A DNA stretch of 64,000 bases from Terracidiphilus sp. (GCA_049517315.1 JBEKSE010000002.1:17202-81201), one strand, 5' to 3'; counted from the stretch's first letter, positions 23,848 to 61,542 are shown. Made by a program: numbers and translations. The notes: a model not told the origin generated them from the sequence alone.

Positions 23848-24453
23848 CTAAATCCAGCCGCGCACGGCATAGTAGGCAATTTTGATGGATTCCTCCATCA
23901 TGGTTTCAAAGGCGGAGAAGCGGCCGTTCCAGTGTTCGGTAGAGTGAAGCACATCGGGAACTGCCATGGGCGTGACTTCAATGCCCAGCTTGCGAAAGAC
24001 GCGAAGCGCCCTGTACATATGAAAGTCGCTGGTGAGCAGAATTTTCTTGCCGGGCATGCCCTGGATCAGTCGAGCCGTCTCGATTCCGTTTTCGCGGGTG
24101 CTTTTGGATGGCCACTCGGCTACGACGGCTTCGCGGGGAATGCCTTCAGAGAGCAGGAAGTTGAGGATGCCAGGGCCTCCGCCGCCGCTGATCACAATCT
24201 TTTTGAAGCCTCCTGTTTGCCACGCAAAAATCGCTTCGCGCGCACGCCAATAAGAGGAATAGGAGATGCCGCCCATATCGTCTCCCGCCGCGCTGAGGAG
24301 GATGAGCACATCGCCTCGTGGCCGCTCGATGGGACCGGCGTAGGTTCGCGCCCACCACGAAACGACCGGTGTGGCGATCACCAACACGGTGATCAGTCCG
24401 ATGGCCGCTAGCGCGCGTCTGAGCCAAACGCCAGCTCTAAGAAGTGCTCTCAT
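23848..24453 (-). CDS. YdcF/DUF218 family protein
   Basis: N-terminal TM; ISGGG, STRENG, LLTSDFHMYRA. Confidence 0.88.
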   Translation of the reverse strand: MRALLRAGVWLRRALAAIGLITVLVIATPVVSWWARTYAGPIERPRGDVLILLSAAGDDMGGISYSSYWRAREAIFAWQTGGFKKIVISGGGGPGILNFLLSEGIPREAVVAEWPSKSTRENGIETARLIQGMPGKKILLTSDFHMYRALRVFRKLGIEVTPMAVPDVLHSTEHWNGRFSAFETMMEESIKIAYYAVRGWI

Positions 24454-25622
24454 ACTCCGGCTTCCGGCCGCTTGGATACGAGCGATTCGAAAATCTCGAA
24501 CAACTCAGACGCGACCGCCTTCCAGGTTCGGCTTCCGTGCGCGGAGATGGCATTGGCGTCCCAGGTTTTGTCCAGGACGGATGCAAGGGCCACCGCCAGC
24601 GTCGATGGATCACGAGGCAGGACGAGGCATCCGTACTCGTTGCTCAGGATCTCAGGGATGCCGCCCACATTTGTGGCGACGACCGGCCTGCCGCTGGCGA
24701 GCGCCTCAACCACCACATTGGGGTAACCCTCCATATAACTCGGCAGAGTGACCAGGTTGGAAGCCGCCATCCAGACAGCGACATCGTCGAAAGCGCAACC
24801 GTGCAGCGCGTGGATGTAGCCAGCCGCATTGTTGGCTTGGATGACCTCTTCGATCAGATGCCTGTCCGGTCCCTCTCCGACCATAAATACCTGCAAGGCA
24901 GGGCGAAGAAAGTGCAGCGAAGCCGCTGCTTCCACCAATTCGCGCAGGCCTTTTTTCACGTCCATGCGTCCGACGTAAACAACGGCCTCCGCCGCCGGAG
25001 CGATGCCGAGTTTCTGCCGAGCCGCCAGACGGTCTGCTGGATGGAAGACAGTAACATCGCAGCCATTGAGGATGGCGCGCGTCTTCTCCGGGGGTGCGCC
25101 CATGGCTACCATTCGCGTGCGCAGATCTCCGCTGATCGCGACCAGAAAATCCGCTTCGCGCAGCACAGTGCGGGTGTGCATTGCTGTAAAGCAATCGTAA
25201 ATGCTGTGGACATCGGACCCAACGGCCATAGCGACGACAGGGACACGGAGAGCTTTGCCTATCTTGAGAGCGGCAAATCCCTCAGGGTAAAGAAAGTAGC
25301 TGAAAATGAGATCGGGCGCGAAGCTGCGAACGTGAGGCCACAGGACACGGGCAGCCATCCATCCGTTGAACGGCCGGGAAACCAGCGGCAGCGCTGGGTA
25401 ATCGTAGTAGCCAACTTTTACATCCGGCACGCCATGAGCCGCGTCAATAGTGTCGTAGGTGCGGCTCCGCGGCTTGAGCAACGAAGGGTACACCGAGTGG
25501 GGATAAAATATTCGCACATCGGCTTTCCGGGATAGGAGTCGCATCGTCTGATATGCGGATCTGCCCTGCGTGGGCTGCGCCGAACTGGGAAAATGCATCG
25601 TGACAACAGCAATCTTGAGCAT
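24450..25622 (-). CDS. Glycosyltransferase family 4
   Basis: YVGRMDVKKG, LPSYMEGYPNVVVEALASGRPVV (Ex7E). Confidence 0.93.
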   Translation of the reverse strand: MLKIAVVTMHFPSSAQPTQGRSAYQTMRLLSRKADVRIFYPHSVYPSLLKPRSRTYDTIDAAHGVPDVKVGYYDYPALPLVSRPFNGWMAARVLWPHVRSFAPDLIFSYFLYPEGFAALKIGKALRVPVVAMAVGSDVHSIYDCFTAMHTRTVLREADFLVAISGDLRTRMVAMGAPPEKTRAILNGCDVTVFHPADRLAARQKLGIAPAAEAVVYVGRMDVKKGLRELVEAAASLHFLRPALQVFMVGEGPDRHLIEEVIQANNAAGYIHALHGCAFDDVAVWMAASNLVTLPSYMEGYPNVVVEALASGRPVVATNVGGIPEILSNEYGCLVLPRDPSTLAVALASVLDKTWDANAISAHGSRTWKAVASELFEIFESLVSKRPEAGV

Positions 25623-25641
25623 GACTATTCTCCAAATCCGA

Positions 25642-27714
25642 TCACCGCGGCAAGGATGAGGACTGCAAAGCCTGCGGGACCGGAAAGGTTCGCCGCAAGC
25701 CTTCGGCGACGCCTACCCGAGGCGTCCATCCCAACTGCTGCTGCGCGGCCGCCTGGTCGAAGTTATGGAGTGGGCGGATGGAGCGGATGCGGTATCTCGA
25801 CAGGGGCACGCTGCGCTTAAGCAGACGCCCGAGCGCCTCGATTCCTATTGATGCGGTCATCAACACGAATTTTGGAATGTAACTGGCCTTGATCTTCGGC
25901 CTGGCTGCCCGGGCGATCTGGATGAACTCACGCTGCGTGACCAAGGCCGGGTCAACCAGGTTGATCAGCGCGCCTTCCAGGCCAGGACGCGAGGAACCAA
26001 GCAGAAGCGCATCCACAACGTCGTCCACGTAGACGAGCGGCAGCGGCAGAGAACCGTTGCCTACAACAATCCAGCGGCCGAACATGGCAAAGCCGCCGGC
26101 CGGGCAACTGGGTTCAACATCGGGACCGAAGATTACGCCGGGACGAATCACGACCGCGGGCAAGCCTCTCTCTTTCGCCGCAGCTATCACCATGCGCTCG
26201 GCTTCGAGTTTGGTCTGCGTATAAGCTCCGCGCAGTTCGGCGTGAGGTTCGAGCGGCCAAGCCTCGGAGACTTTGCCGGCGTGGCTCACGGCATGCTCGA
26301 GCACGCTCACCGAGCTTACGTAAACCATGCGCTCGACGTGGTGCTTGAGACAAGCATCGATTACGTTGCGGGTTCCCGCAACCGTGCCGCGCTGGAAGTC
26401 CGCCGGGCTACCCTTCATCGCAGCCCCTACATGGAAGACCGTGTCCACACCGGCGACGAGAACATCGACATATTCGGGGTCACCAAGGTCGCCCGCGAAA
26501 TAGTCGATCCCGGGACGCGGATTGCCGGGAATCCGGCGAACACCCGCGCGCACCCGCGCACCCTCTTGCAGCAGGCGGCGCACCATCGCACCACCGAGGA
26601 ATCCGCCTCCCCCGGTTACAAGAACGTCAGCCGGTGCGCGTGGCGTCAGCTGCGCCTGCCTAAGAGCATCGCGCTGGCGATCGGCTTCCTCGGACACAGG
26701 GGCCATCGCCCTGACCAGGCGCATGCCCTCCTCTGGGGTCACTGGCACTACAGTACCTTGTTCCAGCGCGGCGTAAAACTCGCGGATGTTCTGTTGAATG
26801 CCCGGCGCTCCCGGCAGTCGCTTGGTTATGAATCTCAGCACATTGCGCGGCACTTCATAGAGGCTCGCCGCGGAGTTGCGCATGGCGCAGATCACAGGAG
26901 AAGCGAACTTCGGCCCTGGAAGCAGCTTGGTCACGTAGCAGGTCTGCAACAGGCAGTCGATCTGCATCACTCCGCGAGTGCCATGTACAATCACCTGGCT
27001 GCGTATCGGGCGCACATTCCATGAAAGGTACATGCGCGCCTGTCCACGCTCACAGTTCACCCTCGCCGTCCACTCGTCGAACACAAGGTTGCTGTCGAGC
27101 CCGGTGGAGCGGAAATCGATCTCCGTCGACGTAATCTGACCCAAAAACGCCTCTGCAATGGCGAGGCCATGCACACCGATGTCTTGCAATGGATAGGAGC
27201 CTTTGCGGTACTGGGGCGGGAGTTTGCCGCCTCCAGGCCACGCCGGGTAATCGGAGCTTCGATGAAAGTCTAGCGAGAGAACCTGGCCGATCTCTCCGAC
27301 ACGAACAATTTCCACTCCGCGCTTCACGATCGGATCAAGTCTGCCGGAGTGAACCACGCCCAACGTGCGACCGCTCGAACTGGCGGCTGCCATCATTTGT
27401 TCGCATTGCTCCACGGTCTCCGCCATCGGCTTTTCGACCAGCACGTGCGCGCCCGCCTGAAGAGCTTGAACGCTGACCTGCGCATGAAAAGAGGGCGGGG
27501 TAAGCACGTGGACCACATCCACGCCGGAAGCGAGTAACTCCTTGGTGCTTCCGTAGGCGTTGGGCAGATTGAATGCTTTGGCGACAACCTCCGCCTTGTC
27601 CAGGTCAAGGTCAGCTATCCCCACAACTTGAACCGACGCAATCGACTTGAGGGCGCGAAGATGGTGCGCGCTGACATAGCCCGCACCGACAATTCCAACT
27701 CTAAACTTATTCAT
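25642..27714 (-). CDS. Fusion of a Gfo/Idh/MocA oxidoreductase and an NAD-dependent epimerase/dehydratase (SDR)
   Basis: N-terminal half: VGIVGAGYVS, HVLVEKPMA. C-terminal half: VLVTGGGGFLG, YVSS, YTQTK. One continuous 690 aa frame. Confidence 0.88.
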   Translation of the reverse strand: MNKFRVGIVGAGYVSAHHLRALKSIASVQVVGIADLDLDKAEVVAKAFNLPNAYGSTKELLASGVDVVHVLTPPSFHAQVSVQALQAGAHVLVEKPMAETVEQCEQMMAAASSSGRTLGVVHSGRLDPIVKRGVEIVRVGEIGQVLSLDFHRSSDYPAWPGGGKLPPQYRKGSYPLQDIGVHGLAIAEAFLGQITSTEIDFRSTGLDSNLVFDEWTARVNCERGQARMYLSWNVRPIRSQVIVHGTRGVMQIDCLLQTCYVTKLLPGPKFASPVICAMRNSAASLYEVPRNVLRFITKRLPGAPGIQQNIREFYAALEQGTVVPVTPEEGMRLVRAMAPVSEEADRQRDALRQAQLTPRAPADVLVTGGGGFLGGAMVRRLLQEGARVRAGVRRIPGNPRPGIDYFAGDLGDPEYVDVLVAGVDTVFHVGAAMKGSPADFQRGTVAGTRNVIDACLKHHVERMVYVSSVSVLEHAVSHAGKVSEAWPLEPHAELRGAYTQTKLEAERMVIAAAKERGLPAVVIRPGVIFGPDVEPSCPAGGFAMFGRWIVVGNGSLPLPLVYVDDVVDALLLGSSRPGLEGALINLVDPALVTQREFIQIARAARPKIKASYIPKFVLMTASIGIEALGRLLKRSVPLSRYRIRSIRPLHNFDQAAAQQQLGWTPRVGVAEGLRRTFPVPQALQSSSLPR

Positions 27715-27874
27715 AAATGAAGAAGTACGCCTCGAATTCCAGTAGTTACCGGTGTTGGGTAGCGCAGCATGGCGCGATTATACTACTTACACAGCGATGC
27801 TTTCGGCTTCCCAGCTATTTTCTTCCAGGCTTCACTGTGGAGAAGATCGCGCACCGCTGTCCGAGAGGAAATCA

Positions 27875-29029
27875 ATGGAGTTCATTTATTTTGGCAATGA
27901 CTGGTTTGCCGACAATCGCACCAGCAGCCACCACATCGCCAGGCGTCTCGGCGCCCGGTTTCCGATGCTCTATGTCGAGGTTCCCGGGCTGCGCGCGCCC
28001 AAGGCGAATGTTCGCGATCTACGTAAACTATTGAGGAAGCTCCGCATGACTTTTCAAGCACCTCAATTGGTTGCTCCACACTTCTGGCGCATGACGCTGC
28101 CGCAAATCCCATTTCGCCGCTTTGCAGCTATTCGCGCTGTGAACCGCGCTTTCTCGCAAATGCTTATTCGCAGAGCCATTAGCAAACTCGGTTTCAATGA
28201 TGCAATCGCCTGGTTTCATGTGCCGCATCCAGGGTTCCTGGCCAAACGTCTGGGGGAAAAGCTAACTGTTTTTTATTGCATCGACGAATACTCGAAACTG
28301 CCCGACGTGGATGGAATAGCCGTGCAGGCCATGGACGACCAACTTACGGCTGCGGCGGACATTGTCTTCGTTTGCAACCAGAAGTTGATGGATGCTCGCC
28401 AGTCTCTCAACGCCAACATTCATCTTTCGCCGCACGGTGTGGACACGGATCTGTTCGCGCTGGCCAATTCGCCCGACACCCAAATCCCCGAGGAAGCGAA
28501 ATCCATGTCCCGGCCGATCATCGGGTTTTGGGGGCTTCTGGATCGATGGGTGGATCTCGGCATCCTGGAAGATATTGCTCGCGCTCGACCGGAGTGGACA
28601 GTTTTGCTGATCGGGCGCGCAGCGGTGGATGTCTCAGTGCTGAAGCGTTTACCGAACGTCGTTTTCGCAGGAGTGAAGCCTTACTCTGAATTGCCTAACT
28701 GGGCCAAAGTGATCGACGTCTGCATTCTGCCATTCACGCAGACCTCGTTGATGGTGCAGTCGAGCCCCCTGAAACTGCGCGAGTATTTGGCTGCTGGAAA
28801 GCCGATCGTTTCCGTTCCACTGCCTGAAGCAAAGCTGCTCGGCAAAGCATTATTGACCGCTGAGGACGGGCCGGGGTTCGTCCGCGCGATCGAGGAGGCG
28901 CTCGTTGCTAACACGCCCGAACTGGCCGCTCTTCGCCAGAAAGCCGTCGAAAAGAACACTTGGGATGCAACAGTGGCGAATGTATTGGGCAAGTTGCAGA
29001 AAGAATTAGCCAATCGCCAGCGAAGCTAA
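27875..29029 (+). CDS. Glycosyltransferase (GT4-like, TuaH-type)
   Basis: VFYCIDEY, IGFWGLLDRWVD, SPLKLREYLAAGKPIVS; ATG 27875 behind GAGGA. Confidence 0.88.
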   Translation: MEFIYFGNDWFADNRTSSHHIARRLGARFPMLYVEVPGLRAPKANVRDLRKLLRKLRMTFQAPQLVAPHFWRMTLPQIPFRRFAAIRAVNRAFSQMLIRRAISKLGFNDAIAWFHVPHPGFLAKRLGEKLTVFYCIDEYSKLPDVDGIAVQAMDDQLTAAADIVFVCNQKLMDARQSLNANIHLSPHGVDTDLFALANSPDTQIPEEAKSMSRPIIGFWGLLDRWVDLGILEDIARARPEWTVLLIGRAAVDVSVLKRLPNVVFAGVKPYSELPNWAKVIDVCILPFTQTSLMVQSSPLKLREYLAAGKPIVSVPLPEAKLLGKALLTAEDGPGFVRAIEEALVANTPELAALRQKAVEKNTWDATVANVLGKLQKELANRQRS

Positions 29030-29203
29030 GTGCCTCGTTCAAGTCGAGCGGAATCGGCAACCGGCCTCTGTGCGAATCGCCGCGCACAGAATGCACCATG
29101 CGACCCTGACCAGGATTTTGGCTGAATTGGAATCGTATTTCATGCCCTCGAAGGCTTTGGGTATAACTTCTGCAAATGGTTCAAAAGTGGTTGACTAACG
29201 TGA

Positions 29204-30220
29204 ATGAGCGGTAGAATAGAGGCAATGCGACAGTGCATATGCGGGGAAATACGAACATCGGTGCTGGGATTCGGTTGCGAATCAGTACTGGGGCGCGTTG
29301 GCCGCAGTGACTCGCTGCGCGCAATGAACGTTGCCTGGAACCAGGGAATCACGCTCTTCGATACGGCTCGGAGTTACGGATTTGGCGAAGCAGAGGCGGT
29401 GCTGGGCGAGTTCCTTCACGGTAAACGCGCGCAAGCCGTCGTGGCGACAAAGTTTGGCATAGATCCGCAGAAACCGAACAAGTGGAAGAGTGCCGCGGTC
29501 CGCGCAGCCCGAAAAGTACCGGGAATTCGCGACCTTTTCGGTTCAGGCGAAGAAGTCGACCCAAGCACCGACAGTGAAGTCACCCGTGGGGAGTTCACTG
29601 TGGAAGGGTTGCGAGCATCGCTTGAGTGCAGCTTGCGCCAACTCCAGACCGACTACGTCGATGTGCTTTTTTTGCATGAGGCCACCGGAGACGTGCTGTA
29701 CCAGCAAGACCTGATGGAGGCGCTCGACAGGTTGGTGCAGGCAGGCAAGGTGCGTCGCGTGGGCCTGTATGCTGACGCGGAGGTGATCGCTGAAGGCATC
29801 GGTAATGGACCGGCGACACTAACTGCAATGCAGTATGGCGGCAATCCTTTTGATCAACTGGTAGCCGCAATTCCGCAGCACAACCGGCGCGGGCTATTTC
29901 TGATTGCCAATCATCCATTCGGCGGCGAGCAGCGCGTCACGCGAGTGCAGGATACTCTTGAGGCAATCTCTTTCGATGAGACTGTACCTGCCGAACTCCG
30001 CGAAAAGCTGCGCGGCGCGGACTGGGAGACAATCACTGAAGCTATCTTTGGGGCAACCTTGAACGGCACGGGGGTTCATGCGCTGGTGCTCTCAATGATG
30101 CAAGAGGATCACCTGCGCGCCAATGCCCGCGCGGTCGAAAGCGATCGCTTTTCCATCGAAGACCTGGCACTGATACGAGATCGCTTGCTGTTTTCTCCCG
30201 CAACCGTGCCCGGTGTGTAA
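29204..30220 (+). CDS. Aldo/keto reductase
   Basis: LGFGC, FDTARSYG, ATKFG, LQTDYVDVLFLH; the D/Y/K/H catalytic tetrad is present. Confidence 0.9.
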   Translation: MSGRIEAMRQCICGEIRTSVLGFGCESVLGRVGRSDSLRAMNVAWNQGITLFDTARSYGFGEAEAVLGEFLHGKRAQAVVATKFGIDPQKPNKWKSAAVRAARKVPGIRDLFGSGEEVDPSTDSEVTRGEFTVEGLRASLECSLRQLQTDYVDVLFLHEATGDVLYQQDLMEALDRLVQAGKVRRVGLYADAEVIAEGIGNGPATLTAMQYGGNPFDQLVAAIPQHNRRGLFLIANHPFGGEQRVTRVQDTLEAISFDETVPAELREKLRGADWETITEAIFGATLNGTGVHALVLSMMQEDHLRANARAVESDRFSIEDLALIRDRLLFSPATVPGV

Positions 30221-30270
30221 TTGTCTTCTAAATGAACCGCAAGCTCAGAATCAGCAAGCGAGGGACCGCG

Positions 30271-31338
30271 TCAGGCTCGATAGGCTTCAACAACCCCAGA
30301 GGGCACGGCGGGTTTGCGGCCATGTATCAGCGTATCGGCAGCCTGGTACATCTGCCAGGCGGTGGCCCAGTGAATCTCGACACCTCTTCGGCCAGCTTCT
30401 TCCGCGAGCCAACGGAATAGATTGTCAAGACCTCCGTTAAGCAACGGTTCGAGATTCCTTTCCTGCGCGCCGTGGGTGTAGAGTTTCAAAAAAATGTCTT
30501 CCCCGATGGCTGGCGCCAGATCGAACCACTGGCTCACTCGCGAGGGAGTTGGCAGATCGTAACCGGCAAGCTCGCCGGTTTCCATGCGCGGCAGAAGCCG
30601 TTCGCCGAATCGCAGACCAAGCGGTCCTGTAATCATCAGCAGGTCGCCTTGCCTGCCGCCGCCAACCGTGGCTTCTATTCCGCGATCGAAGGATTTGGGG
30701 CGATTGCCAGCGTTGTTTGTACACCAGTAAATCTGGTTCAGCACGCGCCCCTGGGTCGCCGAAGGAGCAGAGGGCATGGTGAAATCGGCGTAGCAGCCGA
30801 GATCGCGCAGTAAAGCAATCTCGCCATTCAGGCCGCACCACTTGCCATCTGGATGCGAGTTGTCCAGCGCCCAGTTGCCATGGATAAAGCCGAATACTGT
30901 TCGGCCGTCTTTCTGTCGAAGCAGACCGTGGTCGCCTGTCAAGCGGCGACAGTATTCTGTCACTTTCCGGATGAAGGAATCACGCTGCTCGTTGTCATGG
31001 TGTAGATGCACCTCCACATCGCCTACACCGAGGCGGACAATTTCCGCGATGCCGTCGAGCAGGTCGCGCCGGTACTCTTCTTGCGGGTAAAAGAAAGTGT
31101 ATTGAGGACACTGGCCTGCCGCGTCCTTAAAAGCATCGCCGGCAATGCGAGGCCACTTCTCACGCCATAGCGCTACGCGGCCAAGGGCTGTTTCAACGGA
31201 TGCGCCCATGCCCAGTGGCTCATAGTGATCGGTAATGGCAACCCAGGCGCGCTTCGGCCTTTCGGATCGCGCGATCTTTTTCAAGCGGTCCGCTAGATAT
31301 GGTAAAAGCCAAATCTCTGCATGTCGCGGGAGCTTCAT
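30271..31338 (-). CDS. Conserved hypothetical protein, possible metal-dependent deacetylase/hydrolase fold
   Basis: 355 aa from ATG 31338; His/Asp-rich motifs TDHYEP, EVHLHHD, FIHGNWALDN, YADFTMPS, KLYTHG. Confidence 0.65.
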   Translation of the reverse strand: MKLPRHAEIWLLPYLADRLKKIARSERPKRAWVAITDHYEPLGMGASVETALGRVALWREKWPRIAGDAFKDAAGQCPQYTFFYPQEEYRRDLLDGIAEIVRLGVGDVEVHLHHDNEQRDSFIRKVTEYCRRLTGDHGLLRQKDGRTVFGFIHGNWALDNSHPDGKWCGLNGEIALLRDLGCYADFTMPSAPSATQGRVLNQIYWCTNNAGNRPKSFDRGIEATVGGGRQGDLLMITGPLGLRFGERLLPRMETGELAGYDLPTPSRVSQWFDLAPAIGEDIFLKLYTHGAQERNLEPLLNGGLDNLFRWLAEEAGRRGVEIHWATAWQMYQAADTLIHGRKPAVPSGVVEAYRA

Positions 31339-31491
31339 GAAATTGACTTTCCCTTTGTAGGTTGCCATAACTTGCAGAAGTTGACCAGAATGCAGCCGGC
31401 CATGTCTGAGTATCAAATACGGTTCTATTGCCTGTCAAAGACTCCAAAATCTCTTACTGTGAGCGCCTTTTGTGCGGATGGAGACGCCAGG

Positions 31492-33088: not shown

Positions 33089-33168
33089 ATGCGCTATCCC
33101 GCCCGAGGGAAAAATTCATGTCTTTTGCGATTAGTTCGTTGAGCCGGCGGAAAGCTTGCACTGAGACA

Positions 33169-34662: not shown

Positions 34663-34691
34663 TCGATCGCGGCCTGCTGGCTTGAATCTGA

Positions 34692-51256: not shown

Positions 51257-51265
51257 TTGGCACCC

Positions 51266-52951: not shown

Positions 52952-52977
52952 GATAGTGGAACTCATTTTCCACTATC
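52952..52977. promoter_or_regulatory. Perfect inverted repeat, candidate operator in the divergent promoter
   Basis: GATAGTGGAA-N6-TTCCACTATC (10-bp arms). Confidence 0.55.
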
Positions 52978-53108
52978 GCCGGAAGACGGATTCCCAATTG
53001 AGAGGGAGTTCATAGGGGCATTTCCCTGAATCGAAACGTTTTGTTTTCGGCCCCCGATTGCGTAATGTAAGGGTGGTACGGACCCTGTCAGGCTCAAGGA
53101 CGAGGAAA

Positions 53109-54634: not shown

Positions 54635-54768
54635 GCGCATGCAACAGTTAACGTCGTGCAACTGGTAGCTTCGAGTATCAGGGCTTGAAAGACAGCCTGA
54701 AAGGATGTAGGAAAATGGAAAGCGGGTTCAAGGCATTCCTGTCCGGTTTCGATGGCGCGTGGAGACCC

Positions 54769-57048
54769 ATGAGACGCAACGCAGCTTTGGCGGTAGTTGC
54801 ATTCTTTCTGTCGCTTACTTTATTGACCGGGTGCTTTCGCGACTCCAATGTGCGCAAACATAAATATCTCGAAAGCGGCCAGCGGTATAGCGCACAAGGT
54901 AAAGACAGGGAAGCTGTCATCCAGTTTTCCAACGCTTTGAAAATTGACAAAAACTTTGCTGATGCGCATTATGCCCTGGCGCAGACCTACCTTCATATGG
55001 GTGCTTTTGGCTCCGCTTATGGCGAGCTGCAGCGGACGGTCAGTCTACAACCGACAAATTACAAGGCGCGGATTGATCTGGGAGACATACTTCTTGCCGG
55101 GGGCAAGATCGATGACGCGCAGGCGCAGGCTAACGCAGTGATGGCGGCACAACCGAACAATGCCGATGTTCACGCCTTGCTTTCCCGCATCGCAGCCAGG
55201 CGCGGACAAAAGGACCTGGCACTGTCTGAAATTCACCGTGCGCTGGAACTCGCTCCGAACAAGGCAGTGCTGCATGAGACCCTTGCACTGCTTGAAGTGA
55301 GCGACTCCGCGCAGGCATCTTCTGTTGAAGACGAATTGAAAAAGTCCGTGGCGCTCGATCCTAAGTCTGTGAGCGCCAAGCTGCTGCTCGCCTCTTTTTA
55401 TGCGAAAAGCAACCGGTTGCAGGACGCCGAGCAGGTGTGCTGGAAAGCCGTAGCTACCGACCCAAAAAACCTGAGCGCGCGCGAAGCTCTTGTTCAGATG
55501 GTTCTGAGGCAGGGTGATCAGCCTCGGGCCGAGCAAGTGCTTCGTCAGACCTCCAATGATCTTGCAGACAGTCCGCAGGGTGTGCGCATACTGGCCGATT
55601 ACTATGCGGCTTCTGGGCAAACTGACAAAGCCAGGGCGGAATTTGCCAGCCTGGCTCATAAATATCCCAAGAATGTTTCCGTACAAGAGGGGTATGTCCG
55701 GATTCTCCTCGAGGTCAAGGACTTTACGACCGCGCAGGCTGTAATAACCGAGCTGATGAAGAAGAACGCCAAGGATCCCCAGGTTGCCGTACTGAATGGA
55801 ATTGTATTGCTTAACAGCGGCAAGCTGGCTGACTCTGTAAACGCCCTTCAAAGTGCCGCCAATAATGCCCCGAAGGACGACTTTATTCAGTATTGGCTGG
55901 GCAAGGCAGCTTTGGCCAAGGGCGACAGCAGCCTTGCAGAAAGAAGCTTTCGCCAGGCGGCGCAACTGAATCCGCGTCGTATCGAAGCTCAGGAGGAGCT
56001 TGCTCGCATTGCAGGTCAGCGCGGTGACATGAACACGCTGTCTGATGTGGCGAACAAGACGATTGCCGCCGCTCCTCGCTTTCCAGGCGGTTATCTATGG
56101 CGGGCAGCGGTCGAGTTGAATCATAACTTGCCGGACAAGGCGGAAGATGACATGAAGGCTGCAATGGCCATTGCTCCGCAAAGCCCGCAGGCATATCTTA
56201 TGCTTGGCCAGGTTCGCTTCTCGCAAAAGCGATACCCCGAAGGAGCAACGCTTCTGGAGCAGGCTTTGCAGTACGACCCTAATTCGATTCGTGCCTTGCG
56301 CGGTTTGGTAAATTACGATCTACTCAAAAAGCAGCCGGCTCAGGCGCTTGCTCGCATCAACGCGCAAATCACGAAGAGTCCGAAGAATAGCGGCTTCTAC
56401 ATTTTGCTGGCGGAGTTACAGTTAGCGAACAAGGAGTTTGACCAAGCTGCCATTACCGCTAAAAAGGCCATGGATGCGAATCCTGACGATGGCGAGGCGG
56501 TTGCACTTTATGCGCAGCTTCAAAGTCAAAGTGGTCAGTCTGCGAATGCGATCGGGGCCTGGGAGCAATGGCTGAAGACTCATCCCAACAATGCCGGCGC
56601 CTTGGCCATTATTGGGACTCTTGAGGAATCGAGCGGAGATACGCGGAAGGCGGAAGACTATTACAAACAGGCTCTCGCAATCCAGCCCACGCAGCCTGTA
56701 GCGTCTAACAATCTTGCTTATCTCATGCTCATGAACGGCGAAAATGCCGACGTGGCCTTGTCGCTTGCGGAAACTGCGCGCCGGAGCATGCCAAATTCCA
56801 CCAATACTGCCGACACGCTGGCGTGGGCTTACTACTATAAGGGAACCTATGCGTTTGCCCGTGACCTTCTGGAAGATGCAATCAAGGTCAATCCAAACAG
56901 TGCGACAATGCAGTATCACTTGGGAATGGTATACAGAAAGCTCGGAGATCGAACAAACGCCGCGATGCATTTGAAGAAGGCCATTACGCTGTCTCCTGGC
57001 TCTTCCACGGCCAAGGACAGCCAGACAGCGCTTCAGGGCCTCGGTTAA
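54769..57048 (+). CDS. TPR-repeat lipoprotein (PrsT-like)
   Basis: Lipobox LLTGC; many TPR repeats; NNLAY...DTLAWAYY; ATG 54769 behind GGAGA. Confidence 0.9.
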   Translation: MRRNAALAVVAFFLSLTLLTGCFRDSNVRKHKYLESGQRYSAQGKDREAVIQFSNALKIDKNFADAHYALAQTYLHMGAFGSAYGELQRTVSLQPTNYKARIDLGDILLAGGKIDDAQAQANAVMAAQPNNADVHALLSRIAARRGQKDLALSEIHRALELAPNKAVLHETLALLEVSDSAQASSVEDELKKSVALDPKSVSAKLLLASFYAKSNRLQDAEQVCWKAVATDPKNLSAREALVQMVLRQGDQPRAEQVLRQTSNDLADSPQGVRILADYYAASGQTDKARAEFASLAHKYPKNVSVQEGYVRILLEVKDFTTAQAVITELMKKNAKDPQVAVLNGIVLLNSGKLADSVNALQSAANNAPKDDFIQYWLGKAALAKGDSSLAERSFRQAAQLNPRRIEAQEELARIAGQRGDMNTLSDVANKTIAAAPRFPGGYLWRAAVELNHNLPDKAEDDMKAAMAIAPQSPQAYLMLGQVRFSQKRYPEGATLLEQALQYDPNSIRALRGLVNYDLLKKQPAQALARINAQITKSPKNSGFYILLAELQLANKEFDQAAITAKKAMDANPDDGEAVALYAQLQSQSGQSANAIGAWEQWLKTHPNNAGALAIIGTLEESSGDTRKAEDYYKQALAIQPTQPVASNNLAYLMLMNGENADVALSLAETARRSMPNSTNTADTLAWAYYYKGTYAFARDLLEDAIKVNPNSATMQYHLGMVYRKLGDRTNAAMHLKKAITLSPGSSTAKDSQTALQGLG

Positions 57049-57160: not shown

Positions 57161-58690
57161 ATGTCCAATATGACCAACACCAAGACCATCGCCCGCAACA
57201 CCGGCTGGTTCAGCATCGAAAACATAATTAACGCCGTTGTTTTGTTTACTACTTCGATAGCGATTAATCGCTATCTAGGACCCGAGAAGAACGCCTATCT
57301 CGTTTATGTCTCCTATATCGCCAGCCTGGTCAGCAGCCTGGGCAGTATGGGCATTCCTGCAACCACCCGGAAATACATGGCTGAGTTTATTGGCATGGGC
57401 GACCGGGGCACCGCGCGGTATATTTACCTGCGGACTCTTGTATTGCAGATTGGTTTGGCGACGCTGGCTACCTGCGGCTTTCTTTTCTGGGTAATCAGGT
57501 CTGCTGCGCCAGAATATAGGCTGGCATCGGTTCTTATTGTACTCAGCATTTGGCCGGCAATGATCAACTTCATCTCGGCCCAGGCCAACGCCGCCGCGGA
57601 AGATTTGGCGAAGAACCTGCCAGGCTCGATTGCCTCGGCCGTGACTTACTTCATGGCCATTGCGGCAACGGTAGTGCTTCATTGGGGGGTTGTCGGAATC
57701 GGCGCATCGCTGCTCTTGATGCGCTCTGTCGATTTTCTTGTGCGGTTTTTCCCAACCATGAAGCGTGCGCTGGCCTGGGAGACGACACATGTTCACCCGC
57801 CCGGACTGCGCCAGCGCATGATACCGTTCGCATCGCAGGCTGTTGGCAGCATGTTTGTTGCGCAGATAGTCTGGGGCCGCTCAGAGATTATTTTGCTGAA
57901 GATGCTTTGCTCGGATGTTAAACAAGTGTCTTTTTATTCCGTGGCGTTCACCATGGCTGAACAGCTACTGCTTGCGGCGATCATTTTCGGTACGGCGGCC
58001 GGCACCACGATTTTCGCGCAGTACGGACGGGACAAATCCAGGCTGCCCGAACTTGGCGCCTCCACATTCCGCTATATCGTCATGATGTCGATTCCGCTGC
58101 ACTTTATCGCAGCGTCGCTCGCGTATCCCGCGCTACTGCTCTTCTACGGTCACAAGTTTGAAGGCGCAGCGATGGTGGTTACACTGGCCCCACTGTTGTG
58201 CATGTTCAAAGCCTTTCTAGCGCCGGCGCAGAACCTGCTGGAAAGTTTCGAACGGCAGCGATATGTGATTGCCGCGACAGTCATAGCGGGGGTGATCGAT
58301 ATCAGCGTCGCGTGGTGCCTGATTCCTTCTTATGGCGCGGTTGGCGCTTGTATCGGCAACGGTGCGGCTCAGTTGGCGGCCGTCAGCTTGATGTGGATGG
58401 CAGCAATCCGCCTATACAAGGTAAGACTTCCCTGGTTGCTGGTGGCCAAGATTGTTTTTTGCAGCGCACTGGCATCCTTGACCGCGCATTATATTGCCAT
58501 GCTGATGGCGCCGTGGTTGGCCATTCTTTGCGGTGGAAGCGCCGCACTTGCCGTTTTCTTTGGCTTCTTCTATCTAACGCGAGTGGGCGAGCCGAGCGAC
58601 CACGATCGACTCAAGATTTTGGTCGGGATCCTGCCTAAGCCGTTGGCGAGCCCCGCCGGAAGAGTACTATCTTCGTTGTTTCGTGTGTAA
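57161..58690 (+). CDS. Wzx-like polysaccharide flippase (MOP superfamily)
   Basis: IARNTGW start; about 12-14 TM; LIPSYGAVGA. Confidence 0.88.
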   Translation: MSNMTNTKTIARNTGWFSIENIINAVVLFTTSIAINRYLGPEKNAYLVYVSYIASLVSSLGSMGIPATTRKYMAEFIGMGDRGTARYIYLRTLVLQIGLATLATCGFLFWVIRSAAPEYRLASVLIVLSIWPAMINFISAQANAAAEDLAKNLPGSIASAVTYFMAIAATVVLHWGVVGIGASLLLMRSVDFLVRFFPTMKRALAWETTHVHPPGLRQRMIPFASQAVGSMFVAQIVWGRSEIILLKMLCSDVKQVSFYSVAFTMAEQLLLAAIIFGTAAGTTIFAQYGRDKSRLPELGASTFRYIVMMSIPLHFIAASLAYPALLLFYGHKFEGAAMVVTLAPLLCMFKAFLAPAQNLLESFERQRYVIAATVIAGVIDISVAWCLIPSYGAVGACIGNGAAQLAAVSLMWMAAIRLYKVRLPWLLVAKIVFCSALASLTAHYIAMLMAPWLAILCGGSAALAVFFGFFYLTRVGEPSDHDRLKILVGILPKPLASPAGRVLSSLFRV

Positions 58691-58767
58691 TACACGACGC
58701 AATTCAAAGCGAAAAGCTTACGTGAGTGGTCCGCTTGCGCTGATTCGGCTTTTGGAGCTTCTTACAG

Positions 58768-60468
58768 GTGGCCCTGATGAGTGACACTTCGATGATGCGA
58801 ATGAAGGTGCTGGTCCTGGATGCCGAAAGCGCGGCAGGTTTGGAGACGGTCCAAAGCCTTGGCAGATACGGTTGTACCGTACATACTGCCGCTTTCCAAG
58901 CTCGGCAGAGATTCCGCAGTTCCCGTTTTGTTCGCAGACATTTTCTTTTGGGTACCTTGAAAGACGAAGCCATTCATGACCTGGTCTCTCTTTTCGAGGC
59001 AGAGAAGTATGATCTTGTAGTTCCGGCTACTGAAGTATCGCTGCTTGCAATGCTCTCGCCGGAGATCCCGGATAGTTTGTACCAGCGTGCAGCATTGGCT
59101 CCGCGACCAAGCGTGCAGACCGCATTGGACAAGCAGGCAGTCTGGGAGCTGGCGCAGCGCATTGGCGTCCGAGTTCCCACATCTGAGTTAGTTTGCTCTT
59201 CAAGTTCTCAGCCAGATACTTTTCCTGTCGTACTCAAGCCTGTGCATAGCAAAAGAAATGCCGACGGAGTTGTGAAAGAGTTTGGAGTAACTATCGTCCG
59301 TGACTTGACGCAGTGGAGGGCGGCGCTGACAACGACATATCAGGGCATCCCCGTTCAGCAACAGCAATACATCCCAGGAAAGGGTTTGGGCGTGGAGATG
59401 CTGTTCCAGCACGGAAAGCCCCAATGGGCCTTTCTTCACGAACGAGTGCATGAGCTTCCGCTCACCGGCGGCGGCAGCAGTTATCGCGTATCACTCGCGT
59501 TAAGAGACGACCTGGTTGAGAGCGCAACCCTGCTACTGTCTGCGCTTGATTGGCACGGTGTCGCGATGGTCGAGTTTAAGGTCACGCCGAGTGGCGATGC
59601 TTATCTCATGGAGATCAATCCTCGATTGTGGGGATCGCTCGCGCTTGCAATTGATTGTGGAGTTGACTTTCCTGTTGGCTTGCTCCGCCTTGCCACTGGA
59701 CAGCCAATTCCGCCTCAACCCAGGTACCGCACTGGTTATTACACCCGAAATTTATATCGTGATATTGAATGGCTCAAGACTAACTGGAAGGCTGACCATT
59801 CAGACCCTTTGCTGCTGACAAAACCCATAATCCCCTCTATTCTAGGCTGGTTGCGGCCGCTGATCGGAAAAGAGAGCTGGGACTTCTTTTGCTGGACCGA
59901 TTTGGGGGTGGTGCTCGTCGAAGTGAAAACCCTTATCGTTGAACATTGGCGAAGGGTTGTCAATGTTGTCAGGCGTCGTACCCGCCGTCTATACCTGGAG
60001 CATATTCAGCAACCGTTAATGATTCGAAGGCTGCGCGGGCGGCAAATCGACAAGGTACTGATTCTCTGCTACGGCAATATCTGCCGCAGCCCACTCGCCG
60101 CCGCTTTGGGAGCCCGGCGGTTCCCGAACGTCTCTTTCTCATCTGCGGGATTCTACTCGGAAACCGGCAGGCAAAGTCCTGATTTCGTGATCGCCGCAGC
60201 CGGGCAGCTCGGAGTTGACCTTGCTGAGCACCGTTCAAAGTGTGTCGATGTGAAGATGATCGATGAGGCGGATCTGATCGTAATTATGGATATGCGCAAC
60301 TACGAGCTTCTCGAAAAAGCATTTCCTGGCGCGCTTGAAAAAACACTGTTTCTCGGAATGTTGCTGCCTGCCCCACAGCTTGAGATCAAGGACCCATACG
60401 ATAGCCCGGCGTCGATGCCGGCAACAGCTCTTGAATTGGATTGCGCAATCGGGCTGATGTGGAAATAA
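58768..60468 (+). CDS. Fusion of an ATP-grasp carboxylate-amine ligase and a low-molecular-weight protein tyrosine phosphatase
   Basis: ATP-grasp: PVVLKP, QQYIPG, AMVEFK, LMEINPRLWGS. LMW-PTP: CYGNICRSP, HRSK, IKDPY. Start position uncertain (58768-58801). Confidence 0.88.
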   Translation: MALMSDTSMMRMKVLVLDAESAAGLETVQSLGRYGCTVHTAAFQARQRFRSSRFVRRHFLLGTLKDEAIHDLVSLFEAEKYDLVVPATEVSLLAMLSPEIPDSLYQRAALAPRPSVQTALDKQAVWELAQRIGVRVPTSELVCSSSSQPDTFPVVLKPVHSKRNADGVVKEFGVTIVRDLTQWRAALTTTYQGIPVQQQQYIPGKGLGVEMLFQHGKPQWAFLHERVHELPLTGGGSSYRVSLALRDDLVESATLLLSALDWHGVAMVEFKVTPSGDAYLMEINPRLWGSLALAIDCGVDFPVGLLRLATGQPIPPQPRYRTGYYTRNLYRDIEWLKTNWKADHSDPLLLTKPIIPSILGWLRPLIGKESWDFFCWTDLGVVLVEVKTLIVEHWRRVVNVVRRRTRRLYLEHIQQPLMIRRLRGRQIDKVLILCYGNICRSPLAAALGARRFPNVSFSSAGFYSETGRQSPDFVIAAAGQLGVDLAEHRSKCVDVKMIDEADLIVIMDMRNYELLEKAFPGALEKTLFLGMLLPAPQLEIKDPYDSPASMPATALELDCAIGLMWK

Positions 60469-60504
60469 TTGGCTATTTCCTCCGGCCTATTATCTTCCGG
60501 TAGG

Positions 60505-61542
60505 TCAAGGCCAATACTTGCCGGTGAATCTGCAAACATCCGTTTGAACCCGGAAGCGGCTCCAGCTTGGGTGGTCTATGCCGATTCGATTCACATCATA
60601 AGGAGTTGTCTCGCCAGGTAAATTTGTGCCGCCATACTTTGAAAAGGCTGCGCGATAACCCGCGTCTTGTGCCGTCCTCTGTGTCTCACCTGTGAAGCTG
60701 GTCCTGGCGCCGACCGGATAGGCAAGCACATCGGCTTCTACACCAAGATTTTCCCTCAGGATTTGCCTGGACCTGGATAGCTCTTCGTATTGCATATCCG
60801 GCTCCAGTTGGCTCAACACATGGTGCGAATGTGTGTGGGACCCGATCACCATGCCGCTTCTGTGCATCTCCCGAGCTTCATCCCAATCCAAAAAGCGCCG
60901 CAGAGTCACGGGCGGCACGTTGCCTTCTGAACTTTCCCCTAGCTCCCGAATGAAACGCGCAGAATCGAAATTCTCAGGCCTCTTATATAACTTCAGTACG
61001 GTCCGCAAGCTCTCCGTCAAGCCGTTCCCGTCAATATCGACAGCCAAATCAGACGGGTAGCGGAGAGAGAATCGGCGCCTGCGCGCGGTTTTCATCAGAT
61101 AGGCAATGTGATCCCACCAGGGAAGTTGACAGGATCCCACCATGCTGGTGGCCAGGAAGAAAACACCTTGTGCGACGTGCGTTCGCAGAATAGGGTAAGC
61201 GATTTCGTAGTTATCAAGGTAGCCGTCGTCGAAGGTGATCAACACCCGGCAGCGGCGAGTCTTCTCCTTGATCGTGCCTTCAACAAAAGACAACGCTTCA
61301 TCTAGTGTCACCAGAAAATCGCCGTGCTTTAGATAGGATATCTGATCGTTAAATTGGTCGGCAGTCGCCGAGAAAACGCCGGGATCGAAGAGATCGTCCT
61401 CGGGATTCCCAATGCGATGATAATTCAAAACTAATAGAGAATCTCGTGCTGGGAGTTGTGAAAACAAGTAGGCGGCGCCGCTCCAGTGCAACCCGCGCGC
61501 CAGCAACTCTCTCTTCCCGTTGAAACTCAGGCCGCCTGCCAT
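60505..61542 (-). CDS. Polysaccharide deacetylase (CE4/NodB)
   Basis: LNYHRI, ITFDDGY, IGSHTHSH, LAYPVG. Confidence 0.93.
   Translation of the reverse strand: MAGGLSFNGKRELLARGLHWSGAAYLFSQLPARDSLLVLNYHRIGNPEDDLFDPGVFSATADQFNDQISYLKHGDFLVTLDEALSFVEGTIKEKTRRCRVLITFDDGYLDNYEIAYPILRTHVAQGVFFLATSMVGSCQLPWWDHIAYLMKTARRRRFSLRYPSDLAVDIDGNGLTESLRTVLKLYKRPENFDSARFIRELGESSEGNVPPVTLRRFLDWDEAREMHRSGMVIGSHTHSHHVLSQLEPDMQYEELSRSRQILRENLGVEADVLAYPVGARTSFTGETQRTAQDAGYRAAFSKYGGTNLPGETTPYDVNRIGIDHPSWSRFRVQTDVCRFTGKYWP

Follow-up and report, generated by a model that had tools for sequence, protein, structure and literature searches.

A probable XrtA-associated exopolysaccharide locus with a conserved core and exchangeable tailoring genes in Terracidiphilus

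Overall organisation of the locus

The ~38-kb island at 23848-61542 of the window (the whole 64,000-nucleotide stretch of DNA analysed here) serves slime polysaccharide synthesis and export and surface-protein sorting, and we read it, with a probability of about 85%, as an XrtA/PEP-CTERM-associated Wzx/Wzy-type exopolysaccharide (EPS) locus comprising a conserved core and a hypervariable, cassette-exchanged repeat-unit/tailoring region. The machinery is of an already known type, and the tailoring genes are a patchwork of enzyme cassettes that can be exchanged for others; they do not amount to a coherent system of a new kind. Families were assigned by scoring Pfam and NCBIfam/TIGRFAM profiles against curated cut-offs, and the genes are present at the coordinates given by an earlier inspection of this DNA (the sequence-only reading). 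Four markers of the XrtA system (XrtA, EpsI, PrsT and the TIGR03013 transferase) scored above their curated cut-offs, in favour of an XrtA-type EPS locus, and they lie within an EPS gene cluster; the link to an exosortase made in the sequence-only reading is borne out.

The host is Terracidiphilus (Acidobacteriaceae), a soil acidobacterium, and the nearest loci all belong to Terracidiphilus or other Acidobacteriaceae. Housekeeping genes border the island: pyrR (22938-23669) to its left, trpF (61597-62283) and then trpC to its right, with ~30 genes between pyrR and trpF. Its GC content is 0.55 (genome 0.58), with a minimum of 0.46 in the acyltransferase-3 gene at 35243-36421. For comparison we used 80 related core-containing loci, most with 10-kb flanks that do not reach the outermost tailoring genes; for the latter, the evidence comes from the extended flanks of the nearest related genome, G001, and, for the ATP-grasp/phosphatase fusion, also from a whole-genome search.

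Exosortase unit, cargo and flippase

The exosortase unit and the gene that follows it are:

53058/53109-53996, +, XrtA exosortase (TIGR03109, 215.4 bits, cut-off 208)
53993-54634, +, EpsI (TIGR02914, 131.9 against 42.8)
54685-57048, +, PrsT TPR lipoprotein (TIGR02917, 343.4 against 312.2)
57161-58690, +, polytopic membrane protein, probable MOP-superfamily (Wzx-like) flippase (SpoVB 24.9 bits, MATE WgkD 16 bits)

The catalytic Cys/Arg/His of XrtA (Cys214, Arg259 and His280) are invariant across 61 homologues, EpsI is a separate gene joined to XrtA by an ATGA overlap, and XrtA-EpsI-PrsT are syntenic in 55-62 of the 80 related loci. An ORF at 52963-53445, antisense to the 5' end of XrtA and rich in R, S and P, is probably spurious. 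No PEP-CTERM-tailed gene had been seen in the window by the sequence-only reading, which had proposed a proteome scan; the genome scan agrees, placing 13 genes above the TIGR02595 cut-off elsewhere in the genome and none inside the window. The 13 tails, when read, show the classic PEP-TM-basic layout, and Ser+Thr account for 15-24% of these cargo proteins.

The protein encoded at 57161-58690 has ~10-12 hydrophobic segments and an 81% identical counterpart at the same place in G001, and gave no match to Pfam Polysacc_synt; we regard it as a probable, weakly supported MOP-family Wzx-like flippase. The Wzx/Wzy core had been called complete. That description stands for the priming transferase, Wzy_C protein, PCP and OPX, while its Wzx component depends on the SpoVB match and the hydrophobic segments.

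The export and assembly operon

Twelve co-directional genes, running from 52785 down to 39288 with overlaps or gaps of <160 nt, encode a degenerate sigma-54-type regulator, a short OPX, an 18-stranded beta-barrel, a PCP, a TIGR03015-like ATPase, a BY-kinase, the TIGR03013 priming transferase, GT2s and others. The first ten are:

51850-52785, -, receiver-less degenerate enhancer-binding-protein (EBP) homologue (Sigma54_activ_2 74 bits, HTH_8 41 bits)
51266-51853, -, short class-3 OPX, 195 aa (Poly_export + SLBB only; NCBIfam EpsY 130 bits)
50009-51256, -, 18-stranded outer-membrane beta-barrel by AF2 model, 415 aa, with signal peptide
48454-49992, -, PCP chain-length determinant (TIGR03007, below cut-off)
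47519-48451, -, TIGR03015-like AAA ATPase (below cut-off)
46602-47522, -, BY-kinase with SYYYDY tail (TIGR01007, 128 bits against 108)
45232-46605, -, TIGR03013 XrtA-system priming polyprenyl glycosylphosphotransferase (427.8 bits against 393)
43988-45235, -, membrane GT2 (by family assignment)
42965-43969, -, membrane-anchored periplasmic protein, 334 aa (unannotated domain family)
42044-42829, -, soluble GT2, polyprenyl-phosphate sugar synthase-like, 261 aa (AglJ 109, ArnC 68, PpgS 63 bits, all below cut-offs)

Of the 80 loci, 79 have the priming transferase, 68-76 the BY-kinase, AAA ATPase and PCP, and 42 the membrane GT2 at 43988-45235. TIGR03015, 03007, 03018 and 03027 are best matches in the expected order, all below their cut-offs (283/324.5, 219/279, 132/231 and 154/180, respectively).

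The 415-aa protein, one of the earlier unknowns, was rejected as an enzyme: its AF2 model (pLDDT 85.7, pTM 0.80) is an outer-membrane beta-barrel of 18 strands, the best Foldseek matches of which are 18-stranded OprD/Occ porins, and a sequence search detected no similarity to any library family. As modelled, the OPX (without Wza_C) and the adjacent barrel match the class-3 OPX/beta-barrel composite translocon design described for Myxococcus EpsY/EpsX (PMC9601211, PMC9603273), and the barrel is, on its predicted fold, an EpsX-type partner of a class-3 OPX, a kind already described. With the M. xanthus EPS pathway (PMC9601211, PMC9603273, PMC12819527) the locus shares a short OPX (Poly_export + SLBB) beside an 18-stranded barrel with a signal peptide, the Wzx/Wzy type, a PCP and a separate BY-kinase, but the Terracidiphilus barrel is without detectable family similarity, its pathway is exosortase-linked and its host belongs to another phylum.

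The 334-aa protein, with one N-terminal hydrophobic segment, is encoded at the end of the conserved part of the core operon in Terracidiphilus and occurs in 26 of the 80 loci at ~69% identity. It gave no Pfam, NCBIfam or PDB match, profile search included, and its AF2 model is poor (pLDDT 49); its domain family has 7072 representatives, and long relatives fuse the domain to Kelch, beta-helix or Golvesin_C. The GT2 at 42044-42829 has no hydrophobic segment and is 90% identical in L003, the nearest relative; on its sub-threshold matches it is putatively specific for polyprenyl-P.

Regulation

The EBP homologue is the first gene of the export operon, a position conserved in 44 of the 80 loci. An alignment with four canonical paralogues showed that its GAFTGA segment is deleted and that Walker B (D->S), the Arg-finger (R->F) and sensor II (R->S) are substituted, with Walker A and an intact Fis-type HTH (HTH_8) retained; the post-Walker-A residues that we take to bind c-di-GMP in FleQ are not conserved in it either. 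As a functional sigma-54-dependent EBP it was rejected, since the GAFTGA loop, the Walker B Asp-Glu, the arginine finger and the sensor II arginine are all altered. Among EBP homologues, atypical ones (VpsR of Vibrio cholerae; TyrR-type) control EPS genes and make no contact with sigma-54. The Terracidiphilus protein has in common with them the AAA+ domain and Fis-type HTH, the lack of a functional GAFTGA loop and its encoding with polysaccharide genes, but it is also receiver-less and carries mutations in each of Walker B, the Arg-finger and sensor II. The recognition-helix motif of its HTH recurs only in an EBP-like gene that does have a receiver and that adjoins a second exosortase and a second PrsT of this genome.

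In Proteobacteria, PrsT shares a phylogenetic profile with PrsK/PrsR (Haft et al. 2006; PMC1569441). Neither PrsK nor PrsR was found in the whole-genome search (best scores 95 bits against a cut-off of 300 and 386 bits against 502.6, respectively), and a PrsK match above cut-off occurs in one of 61 genera of Acidobacteriaceae; judged by these profile scores, the lack of PrsK/PrsR holds family-wide. The sequence-only reading was right that PrsK and a receiver-containing PrsR are missing from the window, and its suggestion of non-standard regulation is supported by this absence together with the degenerate homologue. Like the Proteobacterial XrtA/PEP-CTERM-EpsH loci, the Terracidiphilus locus has XrtA, EpsI, PrsT and TIGR03013 above cut-offs, cargo in the genome and an EPS-cluster setting, and it keeps the usual order of the TIGR03015, 03007, 03018 and 03027 homologues, but with scores below the cut-offs; it further differs in lacking PrsK/PrsR, in the receiver-less, ATPase-dead EBP homologue at the head of its export operon, in holding no cargo gene, and in that the window shows no excess of sigma-54 motifs.

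Tailoring cassettes

The middle of the island and its right end carry the following genes:

32912-33067, +, acyltransferase-3 N-terminal fragment (Acyl_transf_3 positions 2-38)
33118-34662, +, GT-C glycosyltransferase 1 (PMT_2, 66.4 bits)
34692-35234, +, acyltransferase-3 C-terminal fragment with an in-frame TAG at 34869 (Acyl_transf_3 positions 242-325)
35243-36421, +, acyltransferase-3 no. 1, intact (Acyl_transf_3)
36593-38020, +, Wzy_C polymerase/ligase-like protein (Wzy_C, 39.1 against 31.7, weak but passing)
38104-39204, +, stp2-like GT4 (by family assignment)
39288-40736, -, GT-C glycosyltransferase 2 (PMT_2, 54.8 bits)
40681-41889, -, acyltransferase-3 no. 2 (Acyl_transf_3, 89.7 bits)
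58768-60468, +, ATP-grasp/LMW-PTP fusion (CYGNICRS and DPY motifs)
60505-61542, -, NodB-type polysaccharide deacetylase (TFDDG and HTHSHH motifs)

The two intact and two broken acyltransferases of the sequence-only reading were recovered, the broken pair being one N-terminal and one C-terminal fragment that flank GT-C gene 1. The N-terminal fragment shares 59% identity with residues 34-92 of the neighbouring intact acyltransferase, and the two fragments may derive from the opposite ends of a single ancestral acyltransferase gene or of two. The segment 33092-35343 is missing in L003, and GT-C gene 1 shows 73-78% nt identity to genes in two further loci (L010, L011). L003 also has 147 nt in place of the window's 2.9 kb at 39161-42063 that hold GT-C 2 and acyltransferase 2, a pair which is, by this alignment, an inserted cassette. 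At the right end, G001 carries a GT4 in place of the ATP-grasp-PTP/deacetylase pair. The fusion was not found in 19 related genomes by whole-genome search and has >1300 homologues in metagenomes; no LMW-PTP domain other than its own was found in this genome.

Three-component periplasmic glycosylation of the GtrA/GtrB/GtrC or ArnC/ArnT type employs a polyprenyl-P sugar synthase GT2, a small flippase and a GT-C enzyme. The island resembles it in the polyprenyl-phosphate-synthase-like GT2 beside PMT_2/ArnT-clan GT-C enzymes; it differs in that its GT2 is without membrane segments and is kept in the nearest relative, whereas the GT-C genes are not. No GtrA-like flippase gene was found in the island, where the only unassigned gaps big enough hold the acyltransferase fragments. 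This GT2 and the two GT-C enzymes might instead glycosylate proteins, likely the Ser/Thr-rich PEP-CTERM cargo, and so produce a glycoprotein-EPS matrix, a reading otherwise compatible with our main explanation. PMT_2 is the protein O-mannosyltransferase family, the cargo is rich in Ser+Thr, as given above, and the Wzy_C protein has weak matches (24-27 bits) to the O-oligosaccharyltransferase TfpM and to TIGR03097, an XrtA-associated putative O-glycosylation ligase. However, PMT_2 also includes ArnT-like lipid/glycan modifiers, the scores to protein-glycosylating families are far under the cut-offs, and the GT-C genes are accessory, being absent from the nearest relative that keeps XrtA and the GT2; we consider protein glycosylation unlikely.

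The left arm

The left arm (23848-32604) contains:

23848-24453, -, DUF218 protein, at the left end of the island (Pfam DUF218, 60.9 bits)
24450-25622, -, GT4 (best matches TuaC and stp2, below cut-offs)
25642-27714, -, Gfo/Idh/MocA dehydrogenase + extended SDR epimerase/reductase fusion, 690 aa (GFO_IDH_MocA 99 bits, residues 4-121; Epimerase 99 bits, residues 364-572)
27752-29029, +, TuaH-like GT4 (by family assignment; not conserved in G001)
29204-30220, +, aldo-keto reductase (domain match; 77% conserved in G001)
30271-31341/31416, -, uncharacterised cytoplasmic protein, 356-381 aa (no family match)
31492-32604, -, WecB UDP-GlcNAc 2-epimerase (TIGR00236, 326 bits against 210)

The DUF218 protein and the GT4 at 24450-25622 have counterparts in G001 at 77-82% aa identity. 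The Gfo-SDR fusion, assigned by its domains a putative role in nucleotide-sugar modification, is absent at this place in G001; the island of G001 has distant Gfo and SDR genes at other places, not fused to one another. The 356-381-aa protein gave no Pfam, NCBIfam or PDB match; it has >4000 homologues (up to 93% identity), all unannotated, and its gene adjoins the XrtA core in loci of the Granulicella and Edaphobacter types as well.

Most of the gene families named by the sequence-only reading withstood profile scoring: both GT-C enzymes are PMT_2 proteins, the deacetylase is of the NodB type, the ATP-grasp ligase is fused to an LMW-PTP domain, and the three redox domains are Gfo/Idh/MocA and SDR (in one fusion protein) and the aldo-keto reductase. 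Its five GT2/GT4 enzymes plus a polyprenol-P GT2 became three GT4, one membrane GT2 and the polyprenol-P-type GT2 (4+1, not 5+1), and the 381-aa and 334-aa proteins remain without a family match.

The left arm could serve another glycan. At least two independent glycan loci would then lie side by side, with the exosortase EPS confined to 35-61 kb and the left arm devoted to LPS O-antigen or to some other glycan of the surface; the arm does form separate, divergent transcription units with its own GT4s and sugar-nucleotide enzymes, and the genome has at least one further PCP-ATPase-BY-kinase-PGT cluster (contig C5). Yet the arm is without a second priming transferase, flippase, polymerase or ligase, the 381-aa gene and the GT4 at 24450 directly adjoin XrtA cores in three Granulicella-/Edaphobacter-type loci (L030, L032, L042), and G001 encloses the whole island in the same flanks, which leaves two adjacent loci a small chance of being correct.

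Core and mosaic among related loci

The core is syntenic in ~60 of the 80 Acidobacteriaceae loci. Tailoring genes occur in 0-31 of them overall, the Wzy_C protein in 20 and the stp2-like GT4 in 31; the GT-C genes, acyltransferase 2, Gfo-SDR, TuaH-like GT4, ATP-grasp-PTP and deacetylase are each seen in 0-5 of the 80, the outermost often lying beyond the 10-kb flanks. In the closest relative, which shares the pyrR/trpF flanks and is 85% identical at the nt level, four indel/replacement blocks lie inside the island. This relative lacks, or has other genes in place of, both GT-C genes, acyltransferase 2, Gfo-SDR, the TuaH-like GT4, ATP-grasp-PTP and the deacetylase; the cassettes that it has instead are other GT4s, a GMC oxidoreductase and an additional acyltransferase. 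By these comparisons, cassette exchange generates diversity at the strain level. The toolkit is also not unusually large, as had been claimed, the pyrR-trpF island measuring 37.9 kb here and 34.2 kb in the nearest relative.

Enterobacterial O-antigen and K capsule loci are hypervariable and held between conserved flanking genes. The Terracidiphilus locus likewise combines a conserved export/initiation module with a low-GC, cassette-exchanged GT/acyltransferase region at a fixed chromosomal site, with gene remnants marking past exchanges, but its conserved module includes an exosortase for protein sorting and its host is a soil acidobacterium.

A further reading, which we hold to be improbable, combines several of these features into a lineage-specific exosortase system of Terracidiphilus-type Acidobacteriaceae, in which the dead EBP homologue replaces PrsK/PrsR control and the polyprenyl-P GT2/GT-C cassettes and ATP-grasp-phosphatase fusion decorate PEP-CTERM cargo or a cargo-polymer linkage; if true, it would imply a strain-specific glycoprotein-polysaccharide matrix. 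A single coherent and undescribed system of tailoring genes that has evolved together with the exosortase core and makes a heavily decorated polymer or glycoprotein coat, as the sequence-only reading proposed, is very improbable: all genes do lie in one island between housekeeping flanks and several components come from uncharacterised families, but the tailoring genes and the core are not conserved together, an outcome that the sequence-only reading had itself named as refuting it and that leaves this reading unsupported; each of those missing or replaced in the closest relative occurs in at most five of the 80 loci (most covered for only 10 kb), and the ATP-grasp-PTP fusion is absent from the 19 related genomes.

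Proposed pathway

For the XrtA-associated EPS locus that we favour, we propose two layers; apart from the OPX domain content and the predicted barrel fold, which were shown, the steps follow from family membership. The first layer, probably conserved vertically, would consist of two divergent units, XrtA-EpsI-PrsT(-flippase) and EBP-OPX-barrel-PCP-AAA ATPase-BY-kinase-priming transferase-GT2; the second would be the hypervariable repeat-unit/tailoring region, in which cassettes are gained, lost and replaced, as happens in O-antigen/capsule loci. The TIGR03013 transferase would prime undecaprenyl phosphate, on which GT4 and GT2 enzymes would build the repeat unit, probably with ManNAc (WecB) and a keto- or epimerised sugar (Gfo-SDR), and acyltransferase-3 proteins would O-acetylate it. 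Flipping by the MOP-like protein and polymerisation by the Wzy-like protein would follow, with chain length and flux set by the PCP, the BY-kinase and the fused LMW-phosphatase, and the polymer would exit through an OPX ring that sits in the periplasm, docked beneath the beta-barrel. Periplasmic steps may include side branching by the polyprenyl-P-sugar GT2 and GT-C enzymes and removal of N-acetyl groups by the NodB enzyme, while XrtA, EpsI and PrsT would process the 13 PEP-CTERM proteins encoded elsewhere. Expression would probably be controlled via DNA binding by the ATPase-dead EBP homologue and not by PrsK/PrsR. From this enzyme content one would predict a branched heteropolysaccharide, acetylated and in part de-N-acetylated, in keeping with the decorated polymer that the sequence-only reading expected.

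Biological meaning

XrtA/PEP-CTERM EPS loci have been tied to floc formation in Zoogloea/Aquincola (PMC9850573), and our literature search found no paper linking an exosortase to Acidobacteriaceae.

Acidic soils and peat count the Acidobacteriaceae among their most abundant bacteria, and the slime of these organisms probably matters for survival and for the aggregation of soil; to our knowledge, the genetics of their EPS is essentially unstudied. The map presented here separates the conserved machinery of an Acidobacteriaceae EPS locus from its variable region, and it offers widespread uncharacterised targets, namely the periplasmic domain family (~7000 representatives), the highly conserved cytoplasmic protein, the ATP-grasp/LMW-phosphatase fusions and the dead EBP regulator.

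Gene content of the island

ORF listing and profile searches confirmed a gene island at window positions 23848-61542, flanked by housekeeping genes on the left (mutL, cmk, pyrR) and on the right (trpF, trpC).

Genes of the island
Left end, minus strand: DUF218 protein, GT4, 690-aa Gfo/Idh/MocA-SDR fusion
Plus strand: TuaH-like GT4, aldo-keto reductase
Minus strand: uncharacterised protein of 356-381 aa (30271-31341), WecB (326 bits, over cut-off)
Plus strand: GT-C 1 (a PMT_2 glycosyltransferase), acyltransferase-3, Wzy_C protein, stp2-like GT4
Minus strand, 12 genes with overlaps or gaps <160 nt, in transcription order: (1) degenerate enhancer-binding protein (EBP), (2) OPX, (3) 415-aa protein, (4) PCP, (5) TIGR03015-like ATPase, (6) BY-kinase, (7) TIGR03013 priming transferase, (8) membrane GT2, (9) 334-aa uncharacterised protein, (10) polyprenyl-P-type GT2, (11) acyltransferase-3, (12) GT-C 2
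Plus strand, divergent from the 12-gene string: XrtA, EpsI, PrsT, polytopic MOP-like protein, ATP-grasp/LMW-PTP fusion
Convergent with the plus-strand genes from XrtA to the fusion: NodB deacetylase

The sequence-only reading had listed five GT2/GT4 enzymes in addition to a polyprenol-P GT2; we counted four, plus the polyprenol-P-type GT2. The two acyltransferases that it described as broken are an N-terminal and a C-terminal fragment that flank GT-C 1. The Wzx that it assigned is less secure: the identification of the polytopic MOP-like protein as a flippase is weak, and PDB sequence and profile searches with this candidate gave no match. A frameshifted, fused XrtD-type exosortase-EpsI was rejected because the two genes are distinct, overlapping by ATGA, and the XrtA model scored over its cut-off. 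The ORF at 52963-53445 was also rejected as a gene and is probably spurious. Two long ORFs near cmk and pyrR (19428-20933, 501 aa; 22233-23222, 329 aa) had no NCBIfam match; the shorter, which lies antisense to part of pyrR, may be spurious. A motif scan lent no support to sigma-54 promoters in the window (35 matches vs 40 expected by chance), and scans for sigma-70 promoters and terminators were likewise at chance level.

Predicted export route and polymer assembly

The 415-aa protein carries a signal peptide and was modelled by AlphaFold2 (52-sequence alignment) as an 18-stranded beta-barrel (pLDDT 85.7, pTM 0.80), the closest structural matches of which are the 18-stranded OprD/Occ porins; PDB sequence and profile searches with the protein gave no match. 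The adjoining OPX gene encodes only 195 aa, comprising Poly_export and SLBB domains, and matches Myxococcus EpsY at 130 bits. A composite class-3 OPX/beta-barrel translocon has been described for Myxococcus (PMC9601211, PMC9603273), and the barrel and the OPX of the island are predicted to form a translocon of this type.

Our tool results provide family memberships, gene order and the predicted barrel fold, and the functions that these families have elsewhere suggest the following pathway. Undecaprenyl phosphate would be primed, a repeat unit containing ManNAc-type and oxidised or epimerised sugars would be built and O-acetylated, and the unit would then be flipped and polymerised by Wzy. The PCP, the BY-kinase and the phosphatase would exert control, and the OPX/barrel pair would serve as export route. 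In the periplasm the GT-C enzymes may branch the polymer using a polyprenyl-P sugar, de-N-acetylation would follow, and PEP-CTERM proteins would be processed by XrtA. It is possible, though we regard it as unlikely, that the GT-C enzymes act on the PEP-CTERM proteins, which would be compatible with the pathway proposed here. Equally doubtful to us is that the left arm of the island serves a different glycan.

The phosphatase of this pathway is part of the ATP-grasp/LMW-PTP fusion (58768-60468), in which the CX5R(S) and DPY motifs are intact and which contains the only LMW-PTP domain found in the genome by tblastn. A whole-genome search did not find the fusion in 19 related genomes, yet it is common in metagenomes, so that we rejected the idea of a protein unique to this genome: it has more than 1300 homologues, and the same architecture occurs in more than 100 clusters among the matches listed. 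Some relatives (P0011, P0027, P0038, P0104) are longer and joined to GT2, GT4 or methyltransferase domains, so that the BY-kinase may not be a target of the 'phosphatase' domain.

A conserved core and a variable remainder

Using the priming transferase as a query over one genome per prokaryotic species we obtained 80 loci, the best of which all belong to Terracidiphilus or other Acidobacteriaceae (Tunturiibacter, Granulicella, Edaphobacter, Terriglobus), the nearest being from a Terracidiphilus MAG (91% amino acid identity). All island proteins were then searched by tblastn against these loci, 10 kb to each side of the priming transferase. The core has the same gene order in most of the 80 loci and comprises PrsT (55/80), EpsI (62/80), XrtA (61/80), OPX (63/80), the 415-aa barrel protein (62/80), PCP (69/80), the ATPase (68/80), the BY-kinase (76/80) and the priming transferase (79/80). 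Conservation is partial for the degenerate EBP (44/80), the membrane GT2 (42/80), the stp2-like GT4 (31/80), the 334-aa protein (26/80) and Wzy (20/80). The GT-C genes, both acyltransferases, the polyprenyl-P GT2 and the deacetylase are rare (0-8 of the 80 loci each). Low counts are less informative for the outermost genes, which most loci, at 10 kb to each side, are too short to include, and their conservation was judged from one relative with extended flanks (G001) and, for the fusion gene, from the whole-genome search. In one uncultured member of the Acidobacteriaceae (L012, contig_1248), the OPX-barrel-PCP export operon directly follows pyrR, and its upstream 10 kb contain no XrtA, EpsI or PrsT; the exosortase unit can thus be separated from the export operon.

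A DNA-level comparison with the nearest relative (L003 and flanks from the same contig) showed common pyrR and trpF flanks, about 85% identity between the two islands, and four blocks that are extra or replaced in the window.

Blocks extra or replaced in the window relative to the nearest relative
25631-29079: Gfo-SDR fusion and TuaH-like GT4
33092-35343: GT-C 1 and C-terminal acyltransferase fragment
39161-42063: GT-C 2 and acyltransferase 2
58731-61614: ATP-grasp-PTP fusion and deacetylase

Instead, the nearest relative has another acyltransferase, a GMC oxidoreductase, two different GT4s, and Gfo and SDR as separate genes. The N-terminal acyltransferase fragment is an orthologue of the 5' end of an intact gene there. 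GT-C 1 shows 73-78% nucleotide identity to genes in two other relatives. GC content is 0.55 in the island and 0.58 in the genome, with one acyltransferase at 0.46. The sequence comparisons thus display the pattern of a polysaccharide locus that is hypervariable in content but fixed in chromosomal position, evolving like an O-antigen or capsule locus. The toolkit had been called unusually large; with an island of 34.2 kb in the nearest relative vs 37.9 kb here, it is not so for the clade. That the tailoring genes are one co-evolved, undescribed system, as had been proposed, is very improbable, since neither across the 80 loci nor in the nearest relative are they conserved together with the export core, an outcome that the sequence-only reading had itself named as refuting.

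Regulators and exosortase systems of the genome

The degenerate EBP that heads the export operon lacks a receiver domain. Aligned with four canonical paralogues of the same genome, it retains Walker A and a Fis-type HTH; the GAFTGA segment is absent, and substitutions affect Walker B (D to S), the arginine finger (R to F) and sensor II (R to S). Distant members of its syntenic family keep the arginine-finger and sensor II arginines and likewise lack the loop. FleQ-type c-di-GMP binding is unlikely: the post-Walker-A residues that bind c-di-GMP in FleQ are not conserved.

The genome (4.34 Mb, 69 contigs) encodes 13 ORFs with PEP-CTERM tails of the classic type; four of these ORFs form a tandem array (contig C6:104700-108110, L088) and have nearly identical tails (PEPSSLLLLGTGLLGLAF). 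No genome match to PrsK or PrsR scored over cut-off. XrtA-like genes occur in 35 of the 61 genera of the family, and PrsK exceeds its cut-off in only 1 of the 61, so that its absence is a lineage trait. A second exosortase module (contig C52:1-15000, L085) includes an untyped exosortase (best matches XrtC/XrtA, below cut-offs), a FemAB-like XrtA-associated protein, a second PrsT (326.5 vs cut-off 312.2) and an EBP-like, receiver-containing regulator, likewise without GAFTGA, which is the only other ORF of the genome with the recognition-helix motif of the degenerate EBP, [IV]SY[KR][AS][LV]LYK. A paralogous EPS cluster (contig C5:7000-25000, L086 and L087) has a PCP, a TIGR03015-like ATPase (44% identical), a BY-kinase and a priming transferase; next to these are a GT-C gene and genes for Gfo and SDR that are not fused. 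A literature search for exosortases in Acidobacteria found no paper with both terms.

Apart from PrsK/PrsR, and from four partner families that score below curated cut-offs, the locus shares the tested features of the XrtA/PEP-CTERM system. Its genes predict a pathway of the Wzx/Wzy kind that exports through a class-3 OPX translocon.

Uncharacterised protein families

The 334-aa protein (42965-43969) is membrane-anchored and periplasmic, and relaxed Pfam/NCBIfam scans and PDB sequence and profile searches found no Pfam or PDB relative. It belongs to a family (7072 representatives) defined by an unannotated periplasmic domain of about 300 aa, which in long relatives (P0371, P0392, P0398, P0419) is joined to Kelch propellers, right-handed beta-helices or Golvesin_C. 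These partners fit a carbohydrate-active role without proving one, and the domain is a candidate for a new carbohydrate-active domain family. Across the 61 genera a strong orthologue was found only in this genus; the AlphaFold2 model from 25 close relatives was unusable (pLDDT 49). The cytoplasmic 381-aa protein (30271-31341/31416) represents a family of over 4000 proteins without annotation (up to 93% identity), for which PDB searches and relaxed Pfam/NCBIfam scans gave nothing; with 80-93% identity across more than 100 metagenomic clusters, its conservation exceeds that of the core export proteins. The interest of the locus lies in widespread, uncharacterised single-gene families and a dead regulator, and not in the 'toolkit' as a whole.
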